The notes: a model not told the origin generated them from the sequence alone. Shown: positions 3,236-63,900, counted from the stretch's first letter. The stretch is DNA of 64,000 nt from Candidatus Omnitrophota bacterium (GCA_903901225.1 CAIUQE010000011.1:1453-65452); one strand, 5' to 3'. Numbers and translations are program-made.

Positions 3236-3380
3236 CTACGCAAAGCGGCTGGAGGATATGCGCAGCCGCGAATTTGTGAAGGGCTTTCCTTCCCTATTAG
3301 AAAAAGCCCGAACTCTGAGCGGCGAAGCATATCCGCAAGCCGCTCCTTGAGCCGGCAATACTTGAGTGTCACAAAAACGA

Positions 3381-4489: not shown

Positions 4490-4500
4490 TGTTTTTTCCT

Positions 4501-14839: not shown

Positions 14840-15619
14840 TCAGTACGTCTTGAAATTCTTCCAGGTCGAATTCCTGAGAGTTACGGTGCCGTACAGATAG
14901 AGCATCGACACATCGGCGGCGGACAAGGCGCGGTTGTAGACGCGGACGTCATCGATGGAGCCATTGACAAAACTTGCATTGCCAGAACCATGTCCAATTG
15001 TAAACGTATTCGTTGCATTATAAGTCACGGACACACCGTTTTGCGTTGAAACAAGTGCGCCATTTATGTATAAATAAGCATTGTTACCGTCAAATACACC
15101 TACAAGATGGACCCAGGATCCAGCACTAACTGTTGAAGACGCACTACGGAAATATGTTGTACCATTTCCAAGACCAAAATAAACCGATCCACCGTATAAA
15201 TAAAGAGCGTATCCCTGCATCCAATGCCTGCTATCAGAATATTCAGCAATAGAAGCACCGTCTGCATATCCAGTTACAGCTACTGGCTTGACCCAGGCCG
15301 ATACCGATATCAAAGCAGGGGCTAAAACAGCTTGTTGCCCAATAGTCACATATTGCGTTACCCCATCTAAACTCATCGCCCCCTGCCCGATCTTCCCCGT
15401 CCCATACGTCGGACTACCTGTACACGTCCCCGTGTTACCGTGATTACTCGCATCCACGACCGTTGCGCCGGCGCAGGTACCCGAAGAGGCTTCGTCAAAT
15501 TTCCACCACCCCACCAGCCCCGACCATATGTCGGCATGGCAAGGAGTGGCTTGAAAGGAACAAAACGATATGATCGAAAATATTAAAAGAATTCGTAGAG
15601 GAGCGTGTTGGCTGGCCAT
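14840..15619 (-). CDS. Secreted LamG / concanavalin-A-like lectin domain protein
   Basis: The 259-aa product has a signal peptide and a Gly/Ser/Thr/Asn/Tyr-rich beta-jellyroll composition (YLYINGALV, VDDVRVYNRALS). The gene is about 42-45% GC against about 60% in the flanks. Confidence 0.55.
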   Translation of the reverse strand: MASQHAPLRILLIFSIISFCSFQATPCHADIWSGLVGWWKFDEASSGTCAGATVVDASNHGNTGTCTGSPTYGTGKIGQGAMSLDGVTQYVTIGQQAVLAPALISVSAWVKPVAVTGYADGASIAEYSDSRHWMQGYALYLYGGSVYFGLGNGTTYFRSASSTVSAGSWVHLVGVFDGNNAYLYINGALVSTQNGVSVTYNATNTFTIGHGSGNASFVNGSIDDVRVYNRALSAADVSMLYLYGTVTLRNSTWKNFKTY

Positions 15620-41657: not shown

Positions 41658-42032
41658 TCACGTGAAGGGGGCTTCAACCTCATGGGCGAACTTGACCAAA
41701 CGGTGCATTTTCATCAACTCGACCTTGTGGAACTCCATCCCGACATCCCACAGTGAACCCGCGCGGCTTCTCGACCAGCGCACCCGTCCGCTGAACTGCA
41801 GCGGCGCGCACCCGTCGGGAGCCTTGACATTGATCGAAATATTATCATCCACAAGAAAACGCTCATTGGTGAACAAGCGGGCACCCGACGCTGAACAATC
41901 TTTCATTTCAACTTCGGTACCGTAATCCGCGGGAGAGTTTTTGAATTTTGTGGGCCACTGGGCTGAAAAACGCTGAAACGTGCGAAGGTCGCTGATTCGA
42001 TTTTTGCCGGTGGGATTGTCACGCGCTTCCAT
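41658..42032 (-). CDS. PilZ-domain (c-di-GMP-binding) protein
   Basis: The 124-aa product has an RxxxR-like segment (NRISDLRTFQRF) and a DxSxSG motif (DCSASGARLF). An AAGGAA Shine-Dalgarno sequence lies upstream. Confidence 0.55.
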   Translation of the reverse strand: MEARDNPTGKNRISDLRTFQRFSAQWPTKFKNSPADYGTEVEMKDCSASGARLFTNERFLVDDNISINVKAPDGCAPLQFSGRVRWSRSRAGSLWDVGMEFHKVELMKMHRLVKFAHEVEAPFT

Positions 42033-42047
42033 AACAGTTCCTTTTGA

Positions 42048-42401
42048 TCAACCCTTCATTTCCTGATGCAAAAAACGCGTATTCAGCGCTGAATCAAGAT
42101 CCTCAAGCGAACCGTCGATAACATCCGCGAACGTGAGCCCGACGCGATACTGATCGGATTTCGGGATACGGCTCACCCATTTCACCTCACCCACCACAAG
42201 CACAGGTTCCGTATCCGGCTTCAACACCAGCTCAATGGCTACCTTCTCGTTCAACTTCGCGGGATGCTGCGAAACAAATCCAATGCCGTCACGGCTGAGA
42301 TCCACCGTTTTCGTATATGTGAAACCGGCGCCTTCTTTCCCATCAACAGGAACATAACAATCGAACCGTCTGGATTTTCTTTTGTTAGCTGGATTTTCCA
42401 T
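42048..42401 (-). CDS. PilZ-domain (c-di-GMP-binding) protein
   Basis: The 117-aa product has RR (KSRRFD) and DxSxxG (DLSRDGIGF) motifs. It is the first gene downstream of the AT-rich 42.4-42.9 kb region. Confidence 0.7.
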   Translation of the reverse strand: MENPANKRKSRRFDCYVPVDGKEGAGFTYTKTVDLSRDGIGFVSQHPAKLNEKVAIELVLKPDTEPVLVVGEVKWVSRIPKSDQYRVGLTFADVIDGSLEDLDSALNTRFLHQEMKG

Positions 42402-42941: not shown

Positions 42942-45900
42942 TCACTGTTCCCCGCGCCCATGGCGTGCGTGAAGATCATTCCACAATAGATCACGCCACG
43001 CGCGATCAAAGACCACGCATGACTGCCCCGGTTTCTTATCCGTGCTCCGCCGCACATATTCAAAATGGCGCCTGTACATTTGCTCCTGCTGGGATATCAG
43101 TCCAAAAGCGCCGGCAGAGATCGACGCCCCATCCTTGCGAGGATAAATGAAATACTGGAATAAATGCACCATGACGATCGCAAGCTCTTCGGGCGGCGCG
43201 TTCAAAACAAACCAGTCGTCGACCCTGATGCTGCGCCCGGCCACATTGATTTCAGCCACCTGCCTGATACTGTCCGCGAGAGATCCGGCTTCGGCCAATT
43301 CTTCACCCGGCCCCACCTGAACCACAAAGTCAGGAAGGTCCTTTGCCGCTTCACCCAGCAACTCCTTGGCTTTACTGAGCGCCGCCTTTACCCGGTTCAA
43401 AGAGGAATTCCTTCCCCCGTTAGTGCTCTTCGCCGGCGCATTCCAGATCTTCGCGGGAAAGAACCGATCCCGGCCGGGATCAGGCAATTCCCGTGGATAC
43501 ACCATCATGACATTCGACCCGCAGCTGGCCAGATCCCCCGGCCGCGAACCTGGGATCACATAATGAAAAGAAGCACCAAAATTCTGGTGGATGTTCATCT
43601 GGAACCTGTCACCGACCACATTAAAATGGAACCAGGCATAATCTTCGAGTGAATCGAATTCACTCAATGCAAAATACCGCTTCACCTGTTCAGTGGCCAA
43701 TACCTCCCCCTCATTAAGGCGAAGGCCGAATTCCCGCACGAGCTTCAGCCTGTCGCGCGCGAATTTTTCACAAAACTCATTATCCTTATCCGAAAGGGAA
43801 AGGGCGAAAAATTTCTTGTAGTCCCCGAACGTTGGCAAGCCTTCATGCTCCCGGCTCGCCCAGATGCCAAAAGTGTCAATAACTTTACGGACATCCACTT
43901 TTCCATCAGGTTTCAGATAAGGCTCAACCCTGAATCCCGGATTGTTGAGAATATGCTCCATAAAAAATTCGGCGCGGCTGTAAGCAACGGGAGGCCGCCG
44001 GCCAGAGTCCATCGCCAGCTCATGGCTCGCGACGATCAGCCGCTTGGTCAACTCAAGGGTCCTGACGCAGTCATCGTTCCTGACGGCAATGATGGAATAA
44101 TCAAGGAGGAACTTCCGGCTCGCGGGGTCATGGCGCAGCGGAACATCATCGTAATGGTCAGGGATCTCCTCCACAAAACTCACGAACACGCCGGCCTTGA
44201 TGACACCGTCGACCCGCGCCACAAAAACATGATTGGGGACGCTGCCACGAACGGGGTCACCGAATATCCGCGCCCGGACGCTCTCGGGTAAAACATCAAT
44301 GCCGCACATGGCTTTCCAGGCGAAGACCTCCAGATCAACGATCTGCTGGACCTCCGGGTCATCCGGGCCAAAGGGCACAAATCTTGATATCGTCACAACA
44401 GGCCCTGGTTGAGATGTTCGCGGCCCGGGCGCATGTTCCAGGGGTTCTTTCATAACATCGCCGGCAAAAGCTTCGCTTTCCTCATGCGTCATGCCGAAAA
44501 TGGCCGCGGCTTCATGGATCAGCGTATAGCGCAGTTCGAAAGATGTTCGTTCATGTTCAGGATTGATAATGATGTAATGCAGGCCGTTAAAAGTGGCGTT
44601 AACGGCAAATATCTTTGTTTGAAAAGCGCGTTCAATTACGCGAAAGATCTTTTTGAGCCCCGGCGGCGCGTTGATGATGATGGCATGCTCGAGGATGTTT
44701 GCTTTTTCATGGCTGCGACGTTCTCTCAATGTCCGCGCCGACGCGTCCCGATCCTCGTCATATTCAAAAACTGCTTTGGCCGCCGCGATCTCCTGTTCAT
44801 GGGCAACGATCCCGGCGCGCAGTTCCGCTTCCCCACGGCGGGACAGTGGGGGGAAAGCATGGGCGGGATCACGTGCCGTGACAAGAGATCTCTGTGTATT
44901 CGCTGAAACATGATAACCAACGTAATACCCGTTAGCGCTTCCCAAAGCTTTATACGCGCCGGCCCTGTAACTGTGGCGGGGCACCAGGGTCAAAAGAGTC
45001 TCCCGCGTCTTCCCGTCATCCCCGCGGAACGTGACCCGGTAAACTTGATCACCATCAGCCCTGTGATCCCGGATGATCCTGTGAATGAATTCCCGCCGTG
45101 CCTGACCCCACGTGATGGCCATGACCTTAGGGCGAAAAGCTTCGGGTTTCCTTTTCCCGACATTGACACCGAACATCTTTGAAACACGCTTCAGCTCATT
45201 GCCCCGATAGGCCCTGACATCCAGGCGCTCCATATACATTTGCATCAACCGGCCCACAGCTCCCTGCGCGGTCTTGCTATCCACGCTCGCGCGCAACAGC
45301 GCATCTTCAAAAATACGCCTCTGATACCAGGAAATATTGGTTTCATCGGGCGCCAATGTCCTCCCGGCATAGCGGACCTCAACCTTCCCTGCTTCACCCG
45401 CGAAAGGGAAAGCCCGGTAACGGACCAACTGGCGGATATATTCACGGGTTTCATACGGCACATTCGCGCGCCAATACATCTTCAGGGGCGTTACCATCTC
45501 TTCCCCGGGAATGTAACGGCGCGCTTTATCGTCCGACAGGATATTGCGTTCTACCAGCTTGAACACCCGGTCCTTCTGAACCACAAGCTGGCCGTATCTT
45601 CTGTAAAGATCGTTGTCAGCTTCCATCAGGGAGCAGCGGGCCGTTTCAAGATCCCCCTGGGAAAAACTTTCCCGCGCAGCCTTCAGGGTTTCGCGCGACG
45701 CACCCTTCGTTGACTCCGTTTTCTCCGTGCCATTTTTCAGATACGCGATCATGTGATCCAGAATTTCCATCACACTGGCCAGCGACAAAACCGGCTTTTT
45801 ATCCGACGCGATAGATAAAAGAACGCGGATATCGTTCCGCAAGCCGGCAACAATGGCCTCTTCCTTCTGGACACTCTCAAGCTTATGGACCCATTGCCTC

Positions 45901-48900
45901 TGTTTCGGGTTCAATCCGAAAAGGTCCATGGCCGAAATATCCACGCGACCGGTCTTGGGGCTCATGACCGCCACATGCTGCGGCATTTTCTCCAGGAAAT
46001 TTGTGACAGCATCAGGCCGACGGTCCATGGCCTCGATCAATGTGGCCGCCGGATCCGGGTTCTGCCAGGTATTGATCAGAAACATTTTCCCGTCATTGGC
46101 CCCGTCAAAGACTTTCTTTGGATCTTGCGTCACGCGCAGATGCCCCGCCCGGATCAGGTCCATCAATTTCCAAAAACGGGCCTTGTCATTGCCGTGATAA
46201 TAGAGCACGACAACCTTGACCCAAGCCGGGAGGCTATCCATGGCCACCGGCGTGAACCCGCTGTACCTGATAAGGCCCATGTCCCGGACGTAATCGGCCT
46301 CCATTGCGTTGGCGGTCTCAACGGCAAAAACTTCACTCTGCTCATGCGTCATGCCGGAAATGGCCGCGGCTTCGTGGATCAGCGTGATAAGCCGCTGACG
46401 GCGTGTCAATGCATGATCAGGGTTAAAGATGATGTAATGCCGGCCGTTGAAGGTGGCGTTGACGGCGAAGATCTTGATCCGGAGGATGCGTTCAAACTCG
46501 CGCAAGACACTTTGCAATTCCGGCGGCGCGTTGATGATGATCACATGCCTGAGGATGTTCTTTTGTTCACAGTTGCGGCGTTCCGGCCACAAACGCATGG
46601 CCACATCCCTGTCAACGTCATACGCGTGAACCTCTTTGACCTTCAGGATCGGCTGCCGCTGCGCCACGATCTCGCCTTGCAAACGGCGCTCTTCGTCGGA
46701 AGATAACGGCCCCGTGGTGCGGGCGGGGTCTCTGTCAAACGTGACGGGTTTTGTATTTCTAAGAATATAATTAACCGTATCGCATTCTAAACGCAACGCA
46801 ATAAGCCCGCTCCTTATTCCTTCAGAAACGAAAGTCCGGCCTGTGGCTTGAACGACCTTTTTCAACCCGCACAACAGAACTTGTTTTTCTTCATCTGTCC
46901 CGGCTTTAGTGTAAACATCCATCAGGGCTTTGATATTTCCATCCGTGGCCATGGCCAAAGAACGGCGCGACATCACCGAACCCAGAGCCCAGGCGAAACA
47001 ACGGCGAGACAAAGGCCCTTCGGCATCAAACATCCGCGCCAAATACTGAGGGAACTCGCGGTCCAGCGGATATCCGGACAAAACGGCCGATCGCAGCAAT
47101 TCAAAGAAAAGATCTTCCCAGCGCGCGGCCTCAACTTCGGATAAATTCGACCTTTCCTTGAACGCTTCCAGGAAATAATAGAAAGTTTCAGGGAACTGCT
47201 CAACACAAGCGGCCAAATTGCTAACTGCCTTGTCAACTTCTTCTGTCGTCACGGAATTTGCCCATGCCGCCATCACCTCACTCCAGCGCCTTCGCGCCGA
47301 GCGGGCCCTTCCCGACAGATAGGACCTGGCCGTATTTGCCGCCTGCGTCGCCTGCCGGACGGCGTCTTCATAACCAACACCGCCAGCCGCCAGGATCCGG
47401 GATTCGTAAGCCAGCGAGGCGAATTGCTCCTCCCTGTTCCAGTTATGCGTCGGCGAAAGAATGATGAATTTCTTCCCGCTCCTGGTCGTGTGGTTCCATG
47501 AAAAAATAATGATATCTTCGGGGCGTACCCATGCCTGAGCATCTTCCTCAAACGCCGCCGTCGCCCAACGGACATCCGCCCGCACCAGCGCCAGCGCGTC
47601 AGCTTTGGATCCGCGCCGGTCCAGGAATTTCCGCAGCTGGCCTTTTTCCTTAGCCGGGAATTTCGGGAATTTGTCCATGACCTTTTCCCGGTCACCCAGA
47701 AAATCCTGCATGTCATCGCGCTCATTTGAACTTAACAATTTGCTGGCGCGAACCGGATCAGCGGATGACGCATTAAAGTCCCTCAACGACGTTGTCCTGC
47801 GGCTGTCCGCGGGATAAGGTTCCTGCGCTAACTTTCCCGCCACGACGCCAGCCACCAGCAGCAGTCCCATCCCCGCCAGGATGGCCGCGACGTGGGCCGG
47901 CGATGTCAGGGCCAGCAGCGCCGCCAGCGGCAATAGGCTGCACTGGATATTCCCGAATGACATTTCTGCCTCGTCGTCAAATTGACAACGTTCAAAACTG
48001 GCACCCGAAAAATTCGCCCCTTCCAGACAGGCTCCCCGGAAATCAACATCCTCGAATGTTGTTCCTCTGAAATCAGCATAACGGCAATCCGCACTGAAAA
48101 GATCGACCCCGGTCAAATATGCCCGGTTCATGCGCGCACGCACAAATGAGGCACGGGCAGCCTTCACATCTTTCATGCGAATGAACATCAATGAAGAATA
48201 GCTGAGGTTGGTTTTCACCAGTCTCACATCAACAAAATGAGCATCCTCAAGTTTGACACGCGACAAATCAGCTTCTTCCAATGTGATCTTTTCCAAAAAA
48301 GATCCGCTCAGGTCAACCCCGGACATGTTCCTCCCTCTGAATATCCCGGGGCACTTGTTACCGATCCATTGAAGCATATGCGCATTAAGTTCAGGCCTGT
48401 CGGCCTCAACGATGCGCCACGCATTCTTCTCAAAACCATTTCCTAGGAAACCAGCTTCATCGAAATGTGTAAAGATATAATTCCGGATAAAAGAAAAAGC
48501 TGTCTCATCCAGGTATGGCCTGTACAAATAAACACTGGCCCTTCCTGAAGCCAGCTTCCTGTATGTGACAATCAACCCCTCCAACATATTTTTATGCCCG
48601 GAATTAACACTTACACAAGGCGCATCAAGTACCAGGGCTGTTTTGCTACCGGAGAAACTATGAACAGATTTTACAAGGATAAGAACACAACCTTCGGGCT
48701 TATCCCAAACAACAGGCAGCCCGGCCCCATGGCATTGCCCTGAAGCCGGATAAAGATCAATGCTGGCTACCGGCACTTTGACCAGCGCAATATCCTTCTG
48801 ATAGCACGCTTTAAGGAACTGGTCCTCCGCATCAGAACAAACGGGACTTACGATCCGGCCCGGGGTCGCAAGGATCGAGAGCTGCGGCACATTTATTCCA

Positions 48901-51900
48901 AACTTCCCGGAATCCAACCTGGCCTGGACCGCCTGCGGGACGGGAAGATCTTCCGTGAACGCCAAAACTTTCGCGTCATCGACAGATGTCTTTATGCCAG
49001 CCCGCCAGTTCCCGGTCGTCCTCCATCCGGGGATCTCCGCAAAAGAAAACCTTTCTCCAACAGACGCAGACCATTGATAAATGGCCGAGGCGACCGGCGA
49101 AACTTCTGTTATCACAAGATCGCCATCCTGCATGTCTTCCCGCATACGACGGTAAAAAGGCTGTTCTTTTCTCATCTGTGAATCCCGGCCCGGACGCTTG
49201 TCGATCATGACCACACTGCCCGGCTCTTGCGTCCTTTGATAACGCCAGAAATAATAATTTTCCTTGATAAGAAGAATCTTGAACGTGCGTCGAGGGTCAA
49301 TGCCATCGAGCCGATCATAACATTGCTGTTGAAGGCGGGCGAGATCCGGCACATCATTGTAGGATGTCGAAATAAAATATAGCTCCTTCAGATTCGGGAA
49401 ATAACGCGCCAGCCTGACGGCATTCAACGGATCCGCGTTCCCCGACGCGGGATAGATCAACGTCGTATAGGCATGGGGATCAACACCCTGCTCTTCCAAT
49501 ACTGTAGAAAAATCATTCAATGACCTTGTCCTGCGGGTGACCGCAGGAACAGGTTCCTGCGCGAGCTGTTCCGCTAATTCGATATTGTTCTGCCGCGCCG
49601 CCTGGATCTCGTTGCGATCTCCCTGGTTCTTCTTAATTTGTCCCACCACAACCCCCGCCACCAGCAGCAGTCCCATCCCCGCCAGGATGGCCGCGGCGTG
49701 AGCCGGCGATGTCAGGACCAGCGCTGCCAGCGGCAAAAGGGCACACTGGATATTCTCTTGTGAACGGTTGCGACCTAACAATTTTTTAATCGCGCCAAAA
49801 ACAATACCGGTCAGCTTCAAAGGTAAAGAAAGTCCCACAATAAGGCTCACCAATAAAAGCTTGAAAGGGTTTGTCTGAATAATTTTTTCCCATTTGCTAG
49901 GCGCCTTACTCCGGACTATTCCATAGGTCAGCGCAACCGCCCCCAGGATCGTGAAAGCAACAACTCCAACCGCAATAAAAACACCGGCCCAGGTCAACGC
50001 ACTCCAACCGGCTGTTGCTGTTGCCGGTGCCATCAATAACAAAAGCGGCCAAGCAAAAGATCGGACTGTCCCGGCATCAGGCCGGGGCTGGACTGTTACA
50101 GGCGACTGCTTCATGTCGCTCAAATTCCTGTCCGCAACAATCCGCTGAACCCTGGCCGCATTATCACCAAAAGCCCTGCCGGGAACCTTGTCTTTAAACG
50201 GTGCTGCAAAATCCATAAATGGTGCCGATAATTGGATCTCGATTTCAAGTTGTGATCCGTTATACAGCACGGTTACAGGCAATTCTTTTCGATTTGCCAG
50301 ATCCTCTGCCAATGGCTGAAGATACGCAAGCCTTTCTTGCAGATCCCGCATTGCCATAAAATCGTGCGACGTCGTTACAACAACATCTTTAATAAACTGC
50401 CCATTCACCTCTTGCATTTGCACGGTCCGATGCAACTGTTGCAGTAATTCTGCAAACGCAACAACATTGACTTCCGCAAGATTTGCCAAAAAGCCCGGAC
50501 AATAAACACGAATGCGTTCAAGATAATCATGTTCGAAAGCTTCTGTCCAATATCTTTTTTTCTGAAGTGCTTTTACTACTTGCCTGGTCTTACGCGCAAT
50601 CTCTCTAACTAACAAACGATTTTTTGTAATAAGAACAGATATTCGCTGCTCCAAAGTTAACCCGTCGACCATATACTTGTAACGCGTTGCCCAAGCTCTT
50701 TTCATCTGCTCCAAGCCATAAAAATTTCCCCCATTGCGGTCACTCCCATCAACAAAAGCCATTAAGAAAAATATATCCAACCACTCGCCCTTGAATTGGA
50801 ACATGTCGTTATATAAATAATCTCTCCCGAAATTATCGACAACTCCATGATGCCGCACAAAAAATGTCATGGCCGTCACAACACTCTCGTGATACCCCCG
50901 CTTACGCAGTTCGCCTGCGATAATGTTTGCGCCTTCACCATAATGATCCCATTCGCGAATACCATAACGGACACCTGCATCATGCGCCGCTGCACCCGCT
51001 ATCAGAATGTCCCGGGCGCGCGGACTCAAATTCTGATACACATAAAAGAATTTCTCACATTCAACACCATATTCTTCCAGGGACACCTTACCCTTAATTA
51101 CAGAAGAAAGGCCATCGTATAATCTTTGCCAGTCACGCGACGCAAGCATCTTTATTCTTTCATTCACCAACATAACATGCGTCTGCTTTCGTTCTTTAAT
51201 ATCAGGCAAAAGGAACGTCTCAATTTCGCGCGCCAAATTGTTCGCATCAGTAAGACCCGTCAATTCAGGCAATACGTTAACTCCAACATTCAAACCGGAA
51301 ACCCTCTGTGCCTCTGACGATGCCAGCGCTTTCAATAAATATGAAAAATATTTCTGACTAATTTCCTCCACCGCCTGTTGCCGAACGCGCTCCTTGAAGC
51401 CACCGTTCTTTTCCCAAACGAAAGGATATACCACCAGCGCGCCGCGCCCTTCACGCACATATTCATTCATCAACATGATCTGAACAACACCTTCAATAAC
51501 CCGATTCAACATGTCCTCGGGTTTGTTAAAATCACCTGTTTGCTCTTTTTTACGGGATGCGACCTGAAGTTCAAACGAGATATCACCGCGATCTTCATTG
51601 CGCACAAGCCTCATTTGCATCTCATAAGCCATAGCCCTCACACTGTCCACAACGTCCCCATTAACTCGAAAAGATGGCCTTTTAAAATAATCTACGACAA
51701 GATGATCCACTTGTTCAATAAAAAGATCACTCTCAATGAGTGCCGCATTCGCCGCAAGAGCCTTGATCTTGTCAGCCGAATTGCGCCCCAAAGCCATTAC
51801 TGCTTCTTTTTCAATTTTTGTCCCACGCGCACCAGCATATTTCCGCTCCCACTCCCATACTCGCCTCTGAAGTTCACCCCTAAGCCGCAAGTCACGCAGA

Positions 51901-54900
51901 TCGATCTCTTCTTTATGCATTTCCCTTCGCATCATGTTCGTCAGGGAATAACCCAAAAACCGCTCGAAAGGACTTATGAAGATTTCCGCTATCACGCGCT
52001 GATTCACAGCCCGCAGAGAAATCTGATGTGACGTGAAAGGCGTAATAAAGATCGTATACATCTTCCCATAGGCATCGCTAAGTGTTCGAAACCAACTATA
52101 CCCTCCCTCGAGCACCGTTAATTTTTTACTGCCGAAGGCTGACGCCAAACCCTTAATAGGGCGCACAACTTTAATATTTTCATCGGAAAGATCAACATCC
52201 TTGTCGCCTTCCAAAACAGTTTCGATCGGCGCATCCTTCATGTGCAAAGTAACAGTTTCCTCAAAATCTTCTTTAGCCATACCCTGCAACTGCTTGTTCA
52301 CACGCACAAGGTCGATCTTACCTTGTGTCGCAAGCGTTAAAAGGCGATTCTTGTCCGCGACACCCAGATTATGAAATCCAAAGTGATATTGCTCACCATC
52401 AACCTCACCCGCCCTTGGATGACGTGTATGATAAAGCGCCAACCTTTCAACAAAGTCTCGATAAAGCGCTTTATCACCTTTAAAAGCACTCGCCATAATT
52501 GCCCCCTTGCCTACTCCCGGCGGCCCGGAATAAACAAGCATTTTTTCCTGTAAAAAAAACTTATCCAGCGGGATCAACCGCAGAACATCTGCCAATACAT
52601 CGACACTTAAAGTATCAATCTCTTCATCCTGAAGTTCACCGCGCATCAAGCGTTCAGCCAACACTCTGCCCTTAGGTATCGTCAAAACATCAGTACGCTG
52701 TTCCGGAACAATCCCCCTAAGCCCTGCCGTCGTCACCTTGATCCACGCGGGAGAGCCCAGGTTACTTTCCTGCGGATCCAGCGCCGCGATGCTTTCGGCC
52801 GAAACCTGCGCCAGCTCAACCCCCATCAACGCCTCATCCGGAATGATCTTCTTGACCGTCGTACTCACATTGACGCGGCTGGCCGTGACGAATACCGGCG
52901 ACCCCGCCAGCTCTTGACGCATAACGGCAAAAGCCGCATTCAATTCCCGTAACTGTTCAACGTCCCCCTCTTTGAGATAGGCCACTGAAATATGATTGAT
53001 GTCCGGAACAAAACGCCTGTAACCTTCAGGAAGATCGCCGGTAAAGCGGGCCGCCATCCGCCCGCGCAACAGCGTCGGGTTATCCGACGCCGACTTCAAC
53101 TCCAGCACAACGGAAAGATCCGGCATCAGCCGCGGGCCAACAACCTGATACGCGAACGGCGTCACACCCCTCGCATCCTCTTCAAGCCCGGACATAAATT
53201 CCTGACGTTCCATGATCGGCCGCGGGCCGATCATAAAATTAGCCACGGTCGTATGGATCTTCGCAAGCGCCTGATAGATCGCCTTCCCTCTGTCCGTATC
53301 CGCCAGCTTGTCAGCAATGACCTGCTGAACGCGGTCAACGACATCACGGGCAGCTTCCTGGCCTCCGAGCGGAATATTATGAAAGATCGACCATTGCGGC
53401 CTTGCGAGGTTCAGGTGATTACGTGCCAATTGATCCCCAACCTGAGCCCCATCTTCCAGCAATTTATCCGTCAATATCTGTTTGTACCCAAAATTCACTG
53501 CGGAAGGATCACTCCCTGCCAGCATCCGATCAAACCCGTCCACCGCCTGCACCCCGAAAACTTCCGGCCGCGCCAGGACTTTCCGCGTGGCTTCTTCAAT
53601 AGCCGGATGCGCCCGCAGATAAAGCAGCTGCCGCGCCATGGCGACGGGCTCATCCGCGCCTTCAACATGAAATTTCTCATGGCCTTCCACGACCCCCTGC
53701 AGGAACAGTAAGTACGCGGCCTTATCCTCACCGGTCAATTCAACAAGCCTGTCTAAATTGGATAAATGTACGTAGAGCGTTTTTTCAGCGGGATTGTAGG
53801 CGGCAATGCTGTCGGCGGTGCGGGCAAAGTCAGAGGTGACAACCACGGCGCACGGAGGCGCCTGGGACAAATAGGGAACTGCCGCGTAAAGATCCCGCAA
53901 CACTTCATCACGCGCCTTATTGAGCGTCTGGCCCTGGGCGTCGATGGCGCGGACACGGTTGTCAACGCCTGCTGTCGCTGTGTAATTGAGCGGCGGAACC
54001 TGATCATTGTAAAGTTCGCGCGTAGCCGTTGACGGAACAAAGGGGGCGGGAGCCGCTGCCCGGCCCTGAATATTTTTTAACGCCTTTTCGATCACATCCA
54101 TGCTCTTATGCGCGTAACCATCCGATCCCTGTTCGACATAGATAAACGTGTCCGCCAATAAAGCCCTCACATGCGACACAAAACGCATTTTCTGTCCAAC
54201 CGCTTCCGGCGCAGCAAAAATGCCGGGGTCTTTCTCGATCAATTCATAATATTTATGCAGTTCCACCAAACGTTCTTTAGCATAACGGCTGCTTATCGCT
54301 GAACTTACTTTGAACGCGACCCTCGCCAGCACAAATGTCACAACAGTCCCTCCCACGATCCAGAGCAGGTTCCCGAGCGGGATGGAAATGCGCGCGGCCA
54401 GCGTATCAAATGCCAGGAAACCGGGAATGGGCACTATAAAGAACCAGATCATCCCGAAAAGAGCGACGACAAAACTTCTGAGGAATTCGGAATAAAGCCG
54501 CGCCTCCTGCATCTTTTTATCTTTTTTAAGTTTTGTCATGTGCGCATCGAACATGTTCGCCAGCATGGCCGGAGGAAAGTACTTGATCAACCCGGCGTGA
54601 AAGTTATTCAACTTGCCGGCCTTTTTATTCAGGCCCTCAATTTGCTTCTCCGCGCCAGAATGCCCTTGAACCCTATTGTTCTCCGCTCTTCTCATGGCCC
54701 CGGTCTTAGGATGATGGATCTGTTCCACAATGGCCTTTGGATAATACATGAGAACCCACGTTAACAATGTCAACCCAACACCGAAGACCAGCACGGTATA
54801 CGCTGCCATAGCACCCCAGGTGCCACCCAAAAGGACAAGGGACGACAATCCGGAATACAGGACCCCGGCCACGCCCCATCCTGCCAGCCTTGACCCCCAC

Positions 54901-57900
54901 TGCTTTGCGTTCCCCGCGAAGTGCCCTTCAGGCGTTTTCATGACGAACATGCCAATGACAAGCCCGAGATTAAAAAGAAGCGACGGCAGCAACAAGATAA
55001 CATTGAGCATATCAAGGCCGGACAAAGCCCAGAGATTCAAGCCGAACAAAAGCAATCCGAAACCCCAGATCACTTTCATGTTGATAAAATTCTCGTATTT
55101 GCGCGTGACATGCTTTCTCATTTCAACGGAGATCGAATCTTCAGCATCCGCGCCGGATAACGTGAACTTCAAGCTCTGGCGCGCGGCCTGACCCAGGAGG
55201 TGGATCATCTGCTGTGTCGCAAACAGCAGGAAGTCGCGCGGCCGATTGGATAGCCAGCGAGAGAGGCCAATGATAAAGCCACCCGCCAGGAAAGCCAGAT
55301 AAACCGAAACCGGATCACCTCCAAAAATCCCAACAATGGCCGCGGCGACAAGCGCGAACACAACAGCGGTCTTGGTATAAAACTCGTGCGCCTCAAGGTA
55401 GGCAATAAGACCATTGAATGTCAGGACCTGGTTGAACATGCCGCCGAGGATCGCGAATACCAGATTAACCCCGATGAAAGGCAGGAAACCGAACTTGATC
55501 GCGATCGGGATCAAAAGGATAAACAGGATCCCGTGAGGTGCTGTAAGGAAGAAGCGTCCGCCGTTATCGCGGATCTCCTTGGCGAAAATGGACTGCGGGC
55601 CATAATCCTGGATCTTCTGCATCATCTTGTCCATCATCAACTGCGGAAACCCGCCTGACCACCGGGGAAACGCGGCCATCCACTCATGCTGGGCGTACGT
55701 CTCACGGATCTTGTGCCAGAACGCCTTGGACTGCGCAAACCGGGGGGTACCGCCCAAACCAATGACCGTGTGTGCCTGCTGCTGCACAGCCCAAATATCC
55801 TCGGAAATACCCACCGCGCTCGGAATGAACCCTACAAGCCCGAACAAGCCCGAAAAATAATTATCCCAAAAGCCCCGGCGCAACGTCCTGGAGCGGATGC
55901 TCAGCGGCATTGTCGGGTACTGCGGGTTCATCAAGGCCGTCTGCGCCCTCCAGTAAGTATTCTTGAGGATATTGCCCCAGCCCGTGCCCACCGACTCACC
56001 CGCCGCGCCGCCGATAGCCATGACACCCTTGACATACGCGCGATGCCCTTCTTCAATGCTCTGTGAAGACTCTCCATGCGGCGACTTGATATTCGTTGTC
56101 CCGCGGCTGGGAACCACAATGACCAGCGAATCATCCGCCAGGGATGTTTTCACATCCAGCACAAAATCATCCATGTTATGAACCGTCGCGTTGCGGTCCA
56201 TAATAAGGAAGGTGTCTTGGCGACTGACCCATTCATGGACCATATCTGTGCCTGTCATGGCCGCGGCTTTATTGGCAAAAGCAGTCCAGTCATGCACAAC
56301 GTTTCCTTCAATGCCTGTCAAAGTTTTCACAAGCCGCAACAACTTCACCCGCTGGCCTTTATCGTCATTCCATTGATAATTTTCTGCGGATGGATTTTTG
56401 TTTCCATCTTCATACTTGTTGCTCAAAAGGATCATGCCGATATCAACACCCGCAAGTTTTTCCTTCAATGCCAGCGCGATATCCATGATCGTGATGCCCG
56501 TATCCTGAGAATGCCCCCCTGATGACTGCATGGAAACCAGGAAACGACGCAGTTTCCAGGTACGGATCAGGCGATCCTTCTGCGCTTCGTCCCGCGCGTA
56601 GAGCCAGATATTGTCGTTCGCCACATCCGCCTGCTGCGTCCCGGCTTTTTGTGCGTCAATAAGGATCTGTACCGGGTGCCACAAGGTCACTTTAAATGTA
56701 GTTTCAACCTGATGCAGTTCCGTGATCCATTCTTTGACTTTTTCATCACCCGCCGTCCCCACAAGATCGTCCACCTCGGCCATGACATCGATCCCGTGCG
56801 AACTGCGGTCCTTGAACCAGTTCCAGCGGTCAATGACGATCTGGCCCCCGAGCCTACCCAGAGTTCCGACCGCATCGCCACCGGCAAAGACCAGCGTGAA
56901 CAATTTTTTGACACCGTGAGCCTTTTCATGCGCGGCGACATTATCGATGTACGCCTTCTCGATACGGGCGTCGTTGCGGGCCATTAGCAACGTGATGATC
57001 TTCTTGTCCAGCAAGCTGGCGGCGATAAGAATGGCGACGACCATCCCATTGACCGGCAGCACAAAAGGCATATGCAGGATCCCGGTAACAGCCGCGGCGA
57101 CAACATACGCCAATCCAAGTGTTTTCATCGGCCATGTGACAAAAGCCGACGCCACAGAATTGATAACATTGGATATGGCGTAACGCGTCATATAAAGCGC
57201 GAGCGCCAGGACAAAACTGCCCGCCCCCAACTGCCACACCACACCGCTGGTCAGATAAACATCCGAGATCCAGTTCACCATGGCCGCCTGTCCCATGACA
57301 AACCCGCCGAGCCACATGAACAGGCCGCTCAATACCGCGTAATTAACAATGGCCTTGAACAGATCCATGGCCCGGCCCGTGGGAACAGATGGCTGTAAAT
57401 GACGGATCAACGAATCCCCCACGATCGACATGGGCCGGCTTTCCGGAATATTCAAAAGGTTCAGGAATTTCGCCAATCCCGAAAATCTGTTGTTGCCCGT
57501 CCGCTCCTGGTAATTGATCCAGGTCTGGGTAACACGGCTATACAATGTGAAAAGATATGGCAAAAAAACGCCGGCGGCTTCCGTCCCGGCGACCAGCCAC
57601 ATCAACCCGTGCGTCATGAACCACTGGCCCAGGCCATGTACCGGCACCATGCTTAAGCCGGCACCGATCAGGACAAACCCGATACCGCGCAGGATATGGC
57701 TTGCGTGATGAAAACCCTTCAATATCCTTGCGGCCGTTTCATCAACGTTCAGGTATCCTTTATATTGCGTCTTTGCCAGAGCGGAAACGGCCACACGCAG
57801 GACCACGCCCACGCCGACGAACGCGAGCGCGAGCTGAATGACCGGCATCGCAACAAGAACAGCCGGCAAAGCGCCAAGGAATGTAAAGATCGACACGCCG

Positions 57901-60900
57901 CCAACGAACTGCTGATACCCCGCCACCATGGCGATCAATACCCCGACCAACTGCGGCAGGACCTTGGCGATATCAATAAAGATGTACCATTTCGGGATGA
58001 TCTCGAAATATTCCCTCTTGAAAAAATCCTTCAGCCCATTCTGTATTTTCCCAATATGATCCTTTTTGACATCAGCCGCGCCATTGACCGCCATCACATT
58101 GGCAAGGACGGCGATCACATTTTCCGTCGTATTCCCGACGATCTCGTGATGGCCGCCATTCAGGGGAGCCTGTACATTCACAGCCCCCACGATCGTCTCA
58201 AGCCGCTGGAGATGCGCGCCAGGCGTGACATAATTCTGAAGGATCTCCTGAATAAAGACCAGGTCGTCCGGCGTGGTGATCGCCGGTGAGCCTCTCGGCT
58301 GAAGGCCAAACTGTCCAAAAAGCTGCGCGATAATTCTGTCTTTCTCCGCCACCCCGGAAGCATTGCCCCCGGCAACGACGATCTTTTGCTTCTCATCCAT
58401 CAGCCTGGTTATGGCGGAACGGTAATATTCGGCATACTGCTCCATGCGGCTCCAGCCGTGGTTACTGTCCATGCTGCCGGCCGAGTTTTTCTTCGACTCA
58501 AAACTGCCGACAGAATCTTTCTTCGATTCAAACACCACGCGGCGCGCCAGGAACGCGTGAATGAGCATGAGCTCATCAAGCCCGTTCAGAAAAGCGTCAC
58601 CGGACATCAATTTGTCATGCAACTCCGCCTCGCTCCAGCCCGCCTTCGCGGCGCGCCAGGCCAGGCCAAGCTTGTAGATCGCGCGCAAATTCCCGCTGAA
58701 ATTCTCATCCACAGGGCCATCCGACGAGCGGATCACGCCGTCGCAGGTCTGCTGTGCCGTAGCCATAAAATTCGTGAAAAGGATGTTCTTCGCCCAACGC
58801 TCTTCCGCGGCCTCCATGATCGCGAGGCTCACCACGACTTTGCCTTCTTTTCTGGCGTTATCCAGACGACGTTTCCATATCGGCCAGATCAGGCTCCAGC
58901 TGATAAGATTCAACCCGATAAGTCCTGCCAGAACGTACGCAAAGCCCCACCAGAATTTTTTGACATCATTGGCCGCGTCATGCTCCACCTGCGCGTTGAT
59001 CGGCATGACCTGCTGCGCGCGGGCCACAGGCGCGGCATCCATCAAGACCTGCGCTGCCGCGGCAGGAGAATAAGCCCATCCGCTCTTGTCATGCGGAACA
59101 AGGACATAACTGCCATCAGCCGTCCTTAATCCGTTAACATCGACGTCTTTAACAGAGAACAGCGAATCCTGCGGCGTCGCTACCTCAATATAGCCGCCAT
59201 GGTTTTGCATGCGGTTAAGCCCATTAACGGCCGCAGCCTCACCCGCGTGGTACCCGATGGAACGGGCGACATCCCGATATTCCGCGGTCATCCTCGACGA
59301 AGCCATGTCCACTTCACCGCGCGGCAAGGTCCAGTCCATGCCCCACACGCCGTTGGCCCTGACGCCAAACATGGCCGTGGCGCGGTCCATCCCCTTGAAC
59401 AACAGCCCCTGGTCAGCGCCCATGGCCGCCTGGGCACGGATAAACGCCAGTGTCGCGCTGGTTGTTGTATGCAGATTCTCGGCGTAAACATTCCCTTTCT
59501 TCACCAGGCTGTTGGCATCGTCCTTGTCCTTGGTGACGATCTGGATCTCATGCGTGCCCGTGATCACCACGCCCTCACGCTGGAATCTCGGCAGGATATT
59601 GCTGTTCAACCAGGCGCCAACGGAAGCCCTCAATTCCAGTGATACGGCACGCAGCTTGTCGTCACCACGGGCGGTGCGCGCGATACGGTCACAAAGGACA
59701 TACGCGTTGGCATTGTCGGTTGTATAGAGTTTTTTGGCCTCAGCCCAGAACGTGATCCCGTTATGATCCTCGGTTTCGGGCGCCACGCGCTCGATCAATC
59801 CGCCTTGAACAAGATATTTATTCCTCAAAGGCTCCAGAAGATTGCCGGTCATGTCATGCGCATGACGATCACCCGTCGCCAGGAAATATTCATACGCCGC
59901 GCGGGCCAGCGCGATCTGCGCGGCCGCGGTCCTCGACGATGGCCGCGCGCTTTTAAACCCGGGAATAAGTTCCTGGGGCATACCCGAATCCACGTGATAC
60001 CACGCGTAAACCGGGTCCTGTCCGCCATTGGTCAAAATATAATAATATCTCAAGGCCCTGGCCGCATCCGCATATTGCCCCTGGCATGTTAACGCGCGGA
60101 TAATAAGCGCTTCGTCTTCCGTGGACGCGTAATCATGGCGCGCCGTCCGCGGATGGGTCAAAAACAGCCCGGAGCCATGGTTGCCTGAATACGGTACAAA
60201 ATTCATTCTGATACCTTCAAGCAAAGTTTCCGGAAGAGCTTCCAATGTGGCCGCGCCAACGGTCAAGCCCGGCTCCCTTTGCGCCATCACCGGCGCCGCG
60301 ACGGGAAGCTCCTGGCTGCGACGACGCTGCCCTTCGCCGGTATAAAGCGCCTTTAATACGGGATCATTATTGCTCCGGGCGACCGATCCACCGAAATATG
60401 GATCCCTGCCCTGGAAGAATGCGTAACGATTTACAAGATTGAAAATGTTAGTATAAACACGGCTATCCAGGTCAGCGGTCGGGCTGTCGCTGTACGGGAA
60501 GATCGTCGCGGCTTCATGGCCATAGATCATCGCCTCACTCTTGCCGCCGTGAGAATTGAAAACCTCGATCGTCGCTGTCTCAAATCCGCTCGTCACGCCA
60601 AAGACCAGCGTATGGCCGTTACGGCGCAATTCATTGAACTCGGCAAAATCACCGTTAACGCCGTAATTCTTGTAGATCGGGATACTGGTCAAAGAATCCG
60701 TGCTGTAATACTGGATCAACGGCAGTGACTGTCTCCCCTGCCCCAGATCTTTCCTGAATGACGTCGCCTGCAAATGTCCGTCATACATCACCTGAGCCAC
60801 GCGCGTGTCCCCTTTGCCCGTCACATAAGTGAAATCACCCCGATACCCCTGGCGGCCGGTCCCCACAAGCCTGGTCCTGTCGGGATTGCCGTTCACATCC

Positions 60901-63900
60901 GCCGCGTACACCTTCTGAATATCAAGGCCGTCCTGGCCGCGCCGGATCTCGGCGAAAGTTTGCCATACCACGCCCTTATTGATATTGTTCCAGTCCAGAC
61001 GGAACGCCTGCAGGGCCGCGCGATCCCTGTGCGTGATATACCCCGTCTTGACCGAGCGAGACGCCGTCGTGTTATCCGTGACAACAACGCGGATCTGGCT
61101 GTCTTCCATCGGCGTGTATTCAATACGGCTTTTCTGATCTTCCGAGAGCATCCATATCCCCGCGAATTCCCTGGTGTTGGGATAGTTGTACCCTTCCGCC
61201 GCCTCATAAACACGTCCGTTGATCAGGCCCCTGCCCCTGCCATAAACAACACCGACCTGCTTGATCAGCTTATAATCCCTGCCGAAAGAATATACAGGCC
61301 GGGCCTCATCTTTTTTCCCAAAGACAACTGTGGCCACGCCGTCCCTGGGCTGGCCCTTGTCAAAATGGAACGGCGTGAAATTGATATATTCATGTCCAAC
61401 ATCCAATGCCGCTACACCGCCTGTCGTGTCCGCGATGATCCCGAAAGCCCTCTTGAAAGATCCACCCACCGAACGCTCAAGGATGTTGATCTTTTTTCCA
61501 TTGATAATTACCGTGCCGCGATCAACAACAGCCCCAACCGGCGTACGGTCCCCGGCCGCATACTTTTCAAACGCGTAAATTTTATGATCCTCCACGACCT
61601 CGGCCTCCCGCGGGTCCGCGGATAAATACAGGCGCTTTGTGATCGTCTTAATGACTTCCCCTGCGGGAGTGATCTTGACAGCCGTCACTTCACCCGTCCG
61701 GCCGCCGGCATTATAGATATTGAAATAATTCTTCCGGATATCCTCAAGCCCCATCAGGCCAAACTTCTTATCATTGAAATTGATCAGGATCCGGTCTTCC
61801 GCGCCTCTCGCTCCACCATGAAATTCCCACCGGATCACCGCCTGCCCCTTCGCGTCAAACCCGCTCACGACCGGCGCCAGGCTCATGTGCTCGATGGCAT
61901 TGCCACCGAGCGGGTCAATATGGTCGATCGACAGGACTTCATTGTTATACGCCGGTACCTGGGCGAGGATCTGCTCACGGGTCATGACTTTGGTATTCTT
62001 ATTCTTCAACACAACGACAAAGCTGTTGGCATCGTACGGACGGTTCTTCGCTTTTGCGAGCGCCGCTTCGAGGGCCTTTTTCATGGGCTCCAGGATCATC
62101 GGATGGACGCTGGTCAGCGTCTGCCCGCCAACCTCATAGGTTCCCGCCGGAAGGACCATGGCCTTGCCTGTCCCGAGATCAACAGCCTGGCCGTCCAGCG
62201 CCCCTTCATAACGGCGCGTATCCTTGTTATACCGCAGGCCCATCGCGGCCAGCGCCTTGTCGCCGGTGTATTCAAGGACTTTCACATTCTGGACGATCCG
62301 CTCATAGTCCGCCATGGTCGTGATCGGCACCGGCATCAACTTGCCCTGAAGGATGAGGCGGCCGGCATCGTCGTGCATGGTCGCGATCTTGCGCAGCATT
62401 TCCGGCGCCAGGAATACCCTGGCACCGTCCGACGCTGTCAGCACGTCGGAAGCAACCGCCTCGCCTTCCAGGATGAATTTCCGCCCGGTCGGCGTGAACT
62501 CCGCGGTATTGAACTGGAAGAATTTGCCCAGGTTCTGCACGGCATTACCGTCGATCCGCGCCTCTTTGACCTGCGGCTTTTGCTTCTTTTCCGAGAATGA
62601 AATGTTCGACAACGGGTTGTACCAGCGGTTGGCTGTCAGGGACGGTGCCCAGGTCATATCCCCCACCGAAGTATTAATGGTCGTGTTAAGGCCCCAGGTC
62701 GGACGGTCACCTTTCAACCCAAACTGCAGTGATGCCTGAACGCCGGACTCCTTATCGCCGATAGCCGGGAGCGGCACACCCGTCACAAAATTCCTGGAAT
62801 CCTGAACGGTAAAGGCAACGCCGCCCACTTTACCGCCAACCTGTGTTGTCTGCTGGCTGAGATTGTATTCAGGGCTGACCTTAACAGGCACACCCAGCAC
62901 CTTGCTTTCCACGCGCGCGCCCACAACAGGACTGGTGCCGGACATCGTGTCATGCCCGACACCGCCATAGAGTTTTACGTTCTTGCTGAGATCAAATTCA
63001 TAGATCGCCCGCGCGAACTTCGCGGCCTCGGCCTCCGTCAAATGAACCTTGAGATCCGGGACATCGTTGCCGTTGGCATCACGCAGGCGCATGCCGGTGA
63101 ACGTGTCCCACCACGACAATGTCAGATCCCTGCCGGCCTGGCCATTAACAACTCCCGCCTCCAGAACAAGCTTGTCCTTGAACCCGATGATACCGTTCAC
63201 CTTCGCCTGGACGCTGGCGCCGGAAATATTTGAATCTTCAGAACCCTGCCCTTTGACCATGAACCCGCTGATCCCCAGGAATATTGATTTTTCTTCCTTA
63301 CCATTGCTCGCCGTGCGGATCTGCGTGCCGATCTGGTCAGCCACAAGATAATAATCCGACGTCACACCCTTGCCCGTAAGATCATCGGGATTTACCTGCC
63401 ACTGATAATTACCGAGATGCCCGGCCGTCAAACGGTTCATCAAAGCCACATTGCCCTTGCCGCCGGTCATCGCATCAAGATGGATCAGCCGCACCGTATT
63501 TTCCGGCGCCGCGCTGTAACCGGCATTCACAACACCCTGGGAAGCGCTGACAAGAACATTTTTAGTATCCACCCAATTCCCATGCGTGCCCATCTGGAAA
63601 GACGTCGCTCCGACCTGGCTGCTCCCGACGAGCTCATTGACCGGCGCCATCCGGATGACCTGGCCTTCTTTCAGGATGAACGGCAGGCGGACCGATCTCG
63701 CGTTGAATTGATCGGCAAGCTGCGCCGCCATGATCTCACGGCCATCAGGCGTAAGGCTCACGTTATCCAGGATCTCCTGGCGCGCCTTGCGGTAGGCAGC
63801 GCCCAGCTCCTGGTTATGCGCGTTCACCGCTTTCGTATACTGTTCAAAGAACGCCGCGATCTCTTTACTCTTGCCCGCGGCCTGGTCCTTGCTGGAAAGC

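Follow-up and report, generated by a model that had tools for sequence, protein, structure and literature searches.

In human guanylate kinase (GMPK), S37, E72, T83, and D103 read the guanine of guanosine monophosphate (GMP), and R41, R44, R148, Y53, and Y81 bind its phosphate. S18 ligates Mg2+ directly and D101 does so via water, and contacts to the transition state come from S13, K17, R44, R137, and R148 (PMC12297293). The guanylate kinase (GK) domains of MAGUK proteins are reported to bind phosphoproteins via the former GMP site (PMC3335814, PMC10171801). A further point of reference is provided by the giant open reading frames (ORFs) of the phylum Omnitrophota, which have been described as poorly conserved and almost devoid of recognisable domains (PMC10066038). 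Multi-enzyme examples have been named 'Archaeovorins', with a domain set of glycosyl transferases (GT5/GT1), methyltransferases, glycosyl hydrolases, peptidases, and NUDIX (West-Roberts et al. 2023, bioRxiv 10.1101/2023.11.21.568195), or placed in a 'multi-enzyme metabolic cluster' class (bioRxiv 10.64898/2026.06.07.730766). The functions of such ORFs have so far been argued from a few Pfam matches, and range from predation and cell-wall degradation to cytoplasmic multi-enzyme assembly. Here, we describe a GK-like module inside one giant protein, encoded in a stretch of 64,000 nucleotides (the window) from a Candidatus Omnitrophota bacterium (GCA_903901225.1 CAIUQE010000011.1:1453-65452). This module belongs to a GK-fold domain family that had not been described before and is largely restricted to Omnitrophota.

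Fold and family of the module

The original prediction, made from the DNA sequence alone, had placed a GK-like module with a phosphate-binding loop (P-loop) at 51990-52545 (~185 amino acids [aa]), within a giant membrane protein. Both motifs on which it drew are present in the same minus-strand ORF: the Walker A motif VYSGPPGVGKG begins at aa 3800 and the GK signature-like motif YHTRHPRAGEVDGEQYHF begins at aa 3834, and the P-loop Lys is 25 residues from the Tyr of YHTR. The predicted extent proved too short, as the module is in fact 461 aa long. The giant ORF and the parts of the module are as follows (NMP, nucleoside monophosphate; secondary structure from DSSP).

42942..64000, minus strand: giant ORF, 6,996 aa or more when counted from its first in-frame start codon (at 63932); frame open at the window end
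51303..52685, minus strand: whole GK-fold module, 461 aa, aa 3750-4210, from AlphaFold2, Foldseek, and the family hidden Markov model (HMM)
52548..52685, minus strand: N-terminal three-helix extension before strand 1, aa 3750-3795 (H5-14, H20-24, H28-37)
52503..52529, minus strand: P-loop SGPPGVGKG, aa 3802-3810, of adenylate kinase type (xPGxGKG), not of Gmk type (PSGxGKS/T)
52380..52436, minus strand: NMP-binding motif LYHTRHPRAGEVDGEQYHF, aa 3833-3851, with R3837, R3840, and Y3849 as the phosphate clamp
52281..52301, minus strand: hairpin VNKQLQG, aa 3878-3884, replacing (F)GNYYGT of Gmk, with Gln at the position of the phosphate-binding Tyr (hhalign)
52155..52265, minus strand: beta-sheet insertion, aa 3890-3926, 37 aa (E141-148, E162-166, E170-177)
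52089..52112, minus strand: LEGGYSWF, aa 3941-3948, equivalent to L-D-I-D-x-Q-G of Gmk (hhalign)
51525..52010, minus strand: helical LID expansion, aa 3975-4136, ~160 aa, seven helices (H219-235 to H378-383; helix H219-235 starts before this segment)
51303..51506, minus strand: C-terminal core, consisting of NRVIEGVVQ (aa 4143-4151), the last strand ALVVY, and a long helix (H388-404, E415-419, H428-460)

Searches with the single sequence were marginal, with the match limited to the first ~55 residues of the GK profile. The Pfam profile PF00625 was found with an E-value of 1.9e-5 and 24.9 bits, 0.3 bits below its gathering score of 25.2, and aligned over no more than positions 2-53 of its 182; for TIGR03263, the Gmk equivalog of NCBIfam, the score was 24.5 bits against a cut-off of 160.45. 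In a phmmer search of the PDB (best E 4.5e-4), the top 15 matches and 19 of the 24 overall were guanylate kinases. A word-index protein search with the module and with the tract downstream of it gave no match, probably because words from the P-loop swamped the index. This result is uninformative, given that 59 matches were later returned when 1.84 billion representative proteins were scanned by HMMER without filters. These comprise a protein from another assembly that is 100% identical (P0001) and 58 relatives, of which further ones stand at 51% and 45% identity, and ordinary 200-aa guanylate kinases appear at the bottom of the list with E ~2e-4 for the whole library.

At the level of the family, the signal is strong. 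The profile of an alignment of 17 full-length module copies (A1) was compared by hhalign with canonical Gmks, using as the E. coli reference a sequence identical to PDB 2AN9, and matched with 98.6% probability and an E-value of 5.8e-16 over 129 columns that run from the P-loop to the LID entry. AlphaFold2 run on A1 returned one compact 461-residue domain (predicted local distance difference test [pLDDT] 91.2, predicted template modelling score [pTM] 0.90). When this model was compared with the PDB by Foldseek, all matches with E<=0.001 were guanylate kinases, aligned over ~175 columns with a target TM-score of ~0.5; the alignment covers nearly the full length of the GK targets, and two MAGUK GK domains occur lower in the list. 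Some family members exceed the Pfam gathering score on their own (P0004 with 39.1 bits; P0009 with 31.6 bits, over profile positions 44-152). On the grounds of profile comparison and modelled structure, the homology of the module to the GK fold is established, and the predicted likeness to the GK signature is more than chance.

The NMP-binding motif follows the order L-Y-H-T-R-x-x-R-x-x-E-x-D-G-x-x-Y-H-F, and hhalign maps its positions to S38, T40, R42, R45, E48, and Y54 of E. coli Gmk, with L3833 in place of the Ser that binds guanine and K+. Further along, E3942 is situated at the position of the Asp that binds Mg2+ via water and G3944 at that of the guanine-binding Asp. An F-I-x-P-F strand lies between LEGGYSWF and the LID expansion in both the model and the hhalign mapping. 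Near the C-terminus, R395, E398, G399, and Q402 (module numbering) are invariant in A1 (17/17 full copies).

Three elaborations distinguish the module from canonical Gmk. The N-terminal helical extension is present in 17/17 full copies and has no counterpart in canonical Gmk by hhalign. The beta insertion, situated between the NMP-binding part and the core, is likewise unaligned to Gmk; its length varies in A1, reaching ~90 aa in relatives (P0004, P0006, P0010, P0017, P0023-25; A1 columns ~205-290). The long form has a pattern, 'L..GDVV…V.R.G', that recalls PDZ or small beta-barrel domains, and the window copy has the short form. The helical LID expansion is absent from compact copies of ~300 aa (L023-L026), in which HMM positions ~22-220 are joined directly to ~378-444; the helical block is thus an insertion into one domain and not a second domain. 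The family HMM matches aa 3756-4209 as a single domain. A second, degenerate copy after aa 4210, hinted at by a tblastn match to L019/L021, was not borne out, as the HMM run with filters off finds one copy.

The original prediction had regarded a GK-like module in such a protein as unusual. The module is not peculiar to this one protein, as it recurs across Omnitrophota giant proteins. A scan with A1 of one genome per species (185,579 species) yielded 30 loci, nearly all in metagenome-assembled genomes (MAGs) of Candidatus Omnitrophota. A few carry the label Planctomycetia or 'uncultured bacterium'; Elusimicrobiota/Endomicrobia and one Nitrospirae MAG account for the most distant loci. At least 75 copies are now known, almost all in Omnitrophota giant ORFs. 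Within the scanned loci, the module always lies inside very long ORFs, many of which overrun both ends of the 20-kb locus and must therefore encode proteins of >5,000-7,000 aa. Tandem copies are frequent, with two to eight or more per protein (eight or more in L025). Two shorter relatives (P0003 and P0018) have a signal-anchor-like hydrophobic N-terminus directly before the module.

The window copy belongs to a nine-member subclade of the family. In four subclade members (L001, L005, L006, and P0002), a NUDIX domain lies directly upstream of the module, and in L006 and P0002, as well as in P0011, the module is followed by a GT5 starch/glycogen-synthase domain. Other neighbours in relatives are DUF218, an ARMT1-like phosphatase, HEAT repeats, and SecA-DEAD. 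P0063 is called 'guanylate kinase' by IMG, and other members are called 'glycogen/starch synthase' or 'DUF1868' after adjoining domains. The module is the sole shared part of the giant protein, of which only aa 3731-4236 match the related loci. The word 'guanylate' occurs 0 times in the main texts of three papers on Omnitrophota (West-Roberts et al. 2023; bioRxiv 10.64898/2026.06.07.730766; Seymour et al. 2023, PMC10066038), and a literature search found no link between Velamenicoccus and guanylate kinase. An anti-phage or phage connection was considered and set aside: PADLOC gave no match, and PHROGs gave only a weak match to its 'guanylate kinase' family.

Active-site residues and proposed function

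In order to compare the module with human GMPK residue by residue, conservation was counted over 75 distinct module copies, with residues numbered by module position. The human residue and its role are given first, followed by the module counterpart.

K17 (catalytic Lys): K60, 73/75
R41 (GMP phosphate): R88, 74/75
R44 (GMP phosphate, transition state): R91, 69/75
Y53 (GMP phosphate): Y100, 75/75
Y81 (GMP phosphate): Gln, Q134, 73/75
D101 (Mg2+ via water): Glu, E193, 75/75
S13 (gamma-phosphate, transition state): position 56, Pro, 72/75
S18 (Mg2+): position 61, Gly in 51, Asp in 15, and Glu in 3 (69/75); Ser in 2/75
S37 (guanine): Leu, L84, 65/75
E72 (guanine): unconserved; Asp in the window copy
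T83 (guanine): variable hydrophobic; Met in the window copy
D103 (guanine): Gly, G195, 74/75

Further conserved residues are G59 (75/75), E94 (74/75), N130 (72/75), Q132 (69/75), and W198 (71/75). An Arg of the LID, R225, located at the position of R133, is kept in 55 of the 65 copies that could be aligned there, and R395 was placed by eye at the Gmk LID Arg148/149 position.

Across these copies, the residues for phosphate binding and phosphotransfer are, as judged by conservation, under strong constraint. More than the generic P-loop is retained, since alignment with Gmk shows the Arg/Arg/Tyr set for the GMP phosphate to be kept. Guanine recognition, by the same measure, is lost, and other, equally conserved residues are in place, with H86, N130, Q132, Q134, and G195 forming a putative base or sugar pocket. 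The P-loop of E. coli adenylate kinase (Adk; 1AKE) is GAPGAGKGT, the same x-P-G-x-G-K-G as in the module. As this loop serves an active kinase, loss of both Gmk hydroxyls is on its own no argument for inactivity.

These features lead us to consider the chances about even that the module, as read from its alignment and model, is a phosphotransferase whose acceptor carries a phosphate and differs from GMP. It would still bind a nucleoside triphosphate and a phosphate-bearing acceptor, and would pass a phosphate to the latter, which could be another nucleoside monophosphate or a sugar phosphate. Because the module adjoins NUDIX and often precedes GT5 in its closest relatives, the most coherent guess is that it shares in local nucleotide or nucleotide-sugar turnover: the upstream NUDIX would make NMP and phospho-sugar from nucleoside diphosphate sugars, and GT5 would consume ADP-glucose. 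A more far-reaching proposal, which we offer tentatively as one possibility, combines a new class of NMP-kinase-fold phosphotransferase (Adk P-loop, Gmk-type clamp, and re-tooled pocket) with an intramolecular NUDIX/GT5 recycling line and in-frame lateral capture of the domain.

Several observations weigh against an active phosphotransferase. The module has no counterpart of S13 and S18, the human GMPK residues in contact with the gamma-phosphate and Mg2+, and roughly one copy in four has Asp or Glu at position 61. The PhnN P-loop carries GKD. The LID and C-terminal mapping (R395, N420) was made by eye only, and hhalign of the C-terminal 90 residues of the module alone against Gmk was not significant. 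A near-invariant Asn of the last strand is Tyr in the window copy. Tandem arrays, which extend to eight or more copies in L025, are a more common feature of binding modules than of enzymes. Finally, the N-termini of the shorter relatives suggest that some copies may lie outside the cytoplasm, where an ATP-dependent kinase would be out of place, and a cytoplasmic location is not secure.

The strongest alternative is a non-catalytic pseudokinase that would serve as a MAGUK-like binding or scaffold domain, with the GMP-phosphate clamp reading a phosphorylated partner or a nucleotide signal and the module organising or regulating adjacent enzyme domains. The original prediction had raised such an interaction role. 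It would account for the loss of the Gmk P-loop hydroxyls and of guanine recognition, and for the many tandem copies in single proteins; the large insertions could act as interaction surfaces, the PDB matches include MAGUK chains (3ney and 4wsi), and the reported binding of phosphoproteins by MAGUK GK domains at the old GMP site offers a precedent. The P-loop of the module speaks against it: its GxxGxGK is essentially invariant across the 75 copies and the same as that of the active kinase Adk. In MAGUK GK domains, the P-loop is degenerate or non-functional. In addition, the module keeps E193, R225, and R395 (75/75, 55/65, and 17/17, respectively), residues that would serve phosphotransfer and go beyond phosphate recognition. 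A MAGUK-like role is therefore possible, though we think it rather unlikely, and given the invariant P-loop it is not the best supported.

A compositional boundary at the edge of the module

The DNA at ~50.2-52.7 kb had been predicted to be richer in AT than the rest of the gene and to have been acquired from elsewhere. The first part is confirmed by the G+C content at third codon positions (GC3), which is 0.44 over aa 3751-4600 compared with 0.64 elsewhere in the gene (chi-square 123, p 1.3e-28). The dip is at synonymous sites, with the codons of nearly every amino acid affected. By way of comparison, GC3 is 0.75-0.81 in the housekeeping genes of the window, 0.64-0.67 in the giant gene outside the tract, and 0.44 over aa 3741-4580. 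The change is abrupt, with a step from 0.67 (aa 3651-3750) to 0.41 (aa 3751-3850) within 100 codons. The segmentation favored by the Bayesian information criterion has three segments (aa 1-3740, 3741-5320, and 5321-6990), and the upstream boundary at aa 3740/3741 (window position 52712) recurs in every segmentation model from three segments upward. This sharp drop coincides with the N-terminal edge of the module, and in the closest relatives the NUDIX domain ends there. Two parts of the tract can be distinguished, of which the core agrees in extent with the predicted ~50.2-52.7 kb.

50193..52712, minus strand: core of the low-GC3 tract, aa 3741-4580, GC3 0.44, containing the module and ~370 aa of mostly helical sequence
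47973..50192, minus strand: extension with lowered GC3 (~0.53), aa 4581-5320, containing a transmembrane cluster, a soluble part, and pentapeptide repeats

The part of the tract downstream of the module has no match in Pfam, PDB, PADLOC, or PHROGs, and a single-sequence AlphaFold model of it was unusable (pLDDT 37.7). An HD-like motif seen there by eye at aa 4310-4380 (AAHDAG…HHG) found no support in the same four resources.

The composition of the module elsewhere indicates that the dip is not intrinsic to the domain, as module GC3 is host-like, within ~0.05 of that of the remaining ORF, in most of 33 other module-bearing ORFs; in L006 (58% GC) it is 0.78. The shift of the window copy, -0.20, is the largest negative outlier among the module-bearing ORFs compared. 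The nearest relatives (52-53% identity) reside in genomes of 31-38% GC, and the contig of P0001, from an independent assembly (sample ERZ1426682), has an identical sequence across the aa 3740/3750 junction. In L008 (module at ORF aa 2568-3009) and L026, the module exceeds the remainder of its giant ORF in GC3, by 0.18 and 0.14, respectively. These positive outliers suggest that the module was exchanged more than once between lineages that differ in GC.

On compositional evidence, the best reading is that a tract of 2.5 kb or more was acquired in frame from an Omnitrophota lineage with lower GC. The window copy would have entered the giant gene together with this tract, with the upstream breakpoint at a domain boundary. 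Acquisition from elsewhere, as first proposed, is thus favored by the difference from the host gene and by the low GC of the closest relatives, but the source most likely lies within Omnitrophota. Some results weigh on the other side. The downstream end of the tract is diffuse, as the core stops near aa 4580 and GC3 stays lowered to aa 5320. In the species-representative scan, no candidate donor exceeded 53% identity. Orthologues without the tract were not seen: metagenome scans with aa 3301-3740 and aa 2541-2860 found no relative, and in strain variants of the adjacent GH94 gene the contigs stop at the giant gene, with no empty site seen.

That the tract was not acquired at all, and instead arose by chimeric assembly of the metagenome or reflects a local bias in composition due to the domain itself, is improbable. 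The sequence does come from an uncultured organism, other assemblies break at the giant gene or frameshift within it, and the downstream boundary is diffuse, but the frame is unbroken for 21 kb across both tract boundaries, the ERZ1426682 contig of P0001 has the identical junction, and the host-like GC3 of the module in most of the other ORFs extends to high-GC ones.

In sample ERZ1426682, the giant gene is represented by separate ORFs of 3,784 and 2,606 aa, with breaks near aa ~620 and ~4389 (window ~62070 and ~50765). The ORF ends diverge in a frameshift-like manner, and contigs of other assemblies stop at the giant gene. Such breaks reflect either errors of assembly or disruption of the gene in some strains.

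A direct DNA repeat occurs at 47775-47916 and 49509-49722 (aa ~4726-4790 and ~5327-5390), with 91% identity over 82 nt and 79% over 66 nt in copies ~1.8 kb apart. It encodes a duplicated transmembrane hairpin and linker (…NIQC(A/S)LLPLAAL…SPAH(A/V)AAILAGMGLLLVAGVV… AQEP…RRT(R/T)SL(N/R)DF). GC3 is 0.78 in the repeat copies and 0.52 in the segment that they bracket (aa 4781-5320), which contains the pentapeptide repeats. The repeat resembles a scar left by recombination or duplication as the gene grew cassette by cassette.

The giant protein is otherwise sparse in recognisable domains. Its N-terminus may fall outside the 64-kb window, as the ORF is open at the window end. A hydropathy scan gave ~18-20 candidate transmembrane helices in six clusters (aa 1664, 1984-2316, 2802-3062, 3155-3210, 4650-4764, and 5333-5366), and places the module in a soluble stretch of ~1,400 aa (aa 3211-4625) between two of them, in agreement with the original picture of a P-loop module within a giant membrane protein. 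The sub-threshold Guanylate_kin match and pentapeptide repeats (aa 5200-5320, E 7.7e-18) are its only Pfam matches; the rest has no significant match in Pfam or NCBIfam. By Pfam, no GT5, GT1, NUDIX, methyltransferase, glycosyl hydrolase, or peptidase domain was found in the part of the protein encoded in the window (6,996 aa or more), nor a PDZ or SH3 domain anywhere in the giant protein. Assignment of aa 2540-2800 as a GT48/FKS glucan-synthase core, suggested by eye from …GISEDIW…, was unsupported by Pfam and by PDB sequence search.

A repeated domain of ~90 aa, with the motif …(N)APP… followed by …HE(A/K)xx…, is encoded at 44462-44525 and 46322-46385 (aa ~5790-5880 and ~6410-6500). Similar motifs occur at aa ~3340-3420 and ~6900-6960, and the copy at aa 3340-3420 keeps HExxH (HEKFH). 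Its counterpart in relatives, NRAPP…LFHELGH, lies upstream of NUDIX and the GK module. The repeat may be a metallopeptidase-like domain and has no Pfam match.

The host is an Omnitrophota bacterium of ~58-60% GC that recurs in some 30-40 public assemblies; ERZ18667627 is one ENA sample in which it occurs. MnmG of the window is 72-74% identical to MnmG of named Omnitrophota, and every named best match is from Omnitrophota. In sister lineages (P0086 and P0087), MnmG is 89% identical. Genes for MutS, MutL, MnmE, MnmG, PurH, and a secretin elsewhere in the window place the giant gene in an ordinary chromosomal context. Directly downstream of it, within a spacer of 43% GC, are two small genes.

41658-42032, minus strand: small gene for a PilZ-domain protein (receptor of cyclic di-GMP [c-di-GMP])
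42048-42401, minus strand: second small gene for a PilZ-domain protein (c-di-GMP receptor)

Beyond both, on the same strand, lie a GH94-like gene, a sugar ABC transporter, and a GH2-like/TPR gene. These PilZ and glycan-gene neighbours suggest that the giant protein may be part of a c-di-GMP-regulated glycan locus. Elsewhere in the window, a gene for a Laminin_G_3 / concanavalin-A-like lectin (14840-15619, minus strand), with GC3 of 0.46 against ~0.75 around it and situated in a low-GC patch at 14-16 kb, is the second compositionally foreign-looking gene of the window.

Relation to known systems

A genuine GMP kinase fused into the giant protein for local GDP supply is so improbable that it can be set aside: the best matches in Pfam, NCBIfam, PHROGs, and PDB are guanylate kinases, P0063 bears that name in IMG, and two c-di-GMP receptor genes follow the giant gene, but the score against TIGR03263 (24.5 of the required 160.45 bits) is far too low, all four guanine-contact positions (S37, E72, T83, and D103) are replaced by Leu, a variable residue, a variable hydrophobic residue, and Gly, the Tyr81 position is Gln (73/75), and two large insertions and an N-terminal extension have been added.

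The module offers a recurrent building block of Omnitrophota giant proteins that can be modelled with high confidence and that standard annotation either misses, as it falls just under threshold, or mislabels as 'guanylate kinase'. Its definition adds one readable station to these proteins. The pairing with NUDIX and GT5 yields a concrete biochemical hypothesis that is testable on a soluble fragment of 460 aa. Furthermore, the sharp boundary in synonymous sites at a domain edge provides sequence-level evidence for domain-by-domain assembly with exchange between lineages. If this is true, the window copy would be a case, caught in the act, of giant gene growth via in-frame lateral capture of enzyme domains.

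The window protein resembles Archaeovorin-type proteins in phylum, in an ORF of >20 kb, and in having many transmembrane helices and few recognisable domains. Relatives of the module adjoin GT5, GT1, NUDIX, and SecA-DEAD, which are typical of Archaeovorin-type proteins, whereas the window protein, with no GT5, NUDIX, or methyltransferase by Pfam, shares the GK-like module only.

With E. coli Adk (1AKE), the module has in common the P-loop pattern and the logic of CORE, NMP-binding, and LID parts. It differs in that its NMP-binding motif is Gmk-type, and no adenylate, UMP, or CMP kinase is among its PDB sequence or structure matches.

The GK domains of MAGUKs (PSD-95/Dlg, MPP1 [3NEY], and PALS1 [4WSI]) likewise represent a GK fold inside a large, membrane-associated, multi-domain protein. 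In both cases, GMP-kinase specificity is lost and the phosphate-binding Arg/Arg/Tyr are kept. The hinge Ser (S37 in human GMPK) is Pro in MAGUKs and Leu in the module. In contrast to MAGUK GK domains, the module has a conserved P-loop, Mg-water acid, and LID arginines; it is bacterial, is accompanied by no PDZ or SH3, and has other insertions.

The closest described system is Gmk itself (PF00625, TIGR03263; E. coli 2AN9, yeast 1GKY, and human GMPK), with which the module shares the fold and the order of elements: strand 1, P-loop, NMP motif, acid-ended core strand, F-I-x-P, LID, last strand, and C-terminal helix. The Gmk NMP-binding motif, (T/S)R-x-x-R-x-x-E-x-(D)G-x-x-Y-x-F, is likewise common to both, and the module keeps the Gmk catalytic Lys, the phosphate ligands R41, R44, and Y53, and the Mg-water acid D101 (as Glu). 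It departs from Gmk in its length (461 aa vs ~200 aa), in its added structural elements, in the Pro and Gly that stand for S13 and S18 in the P-loop, in the replaced guanine ligands and the change of Y81 to Gln, and in its occurrence within giant multi-domain proteins, sometimes in tandem. The module is a derived member of the NMP-kinase/GK fold, and not a categorically new system.

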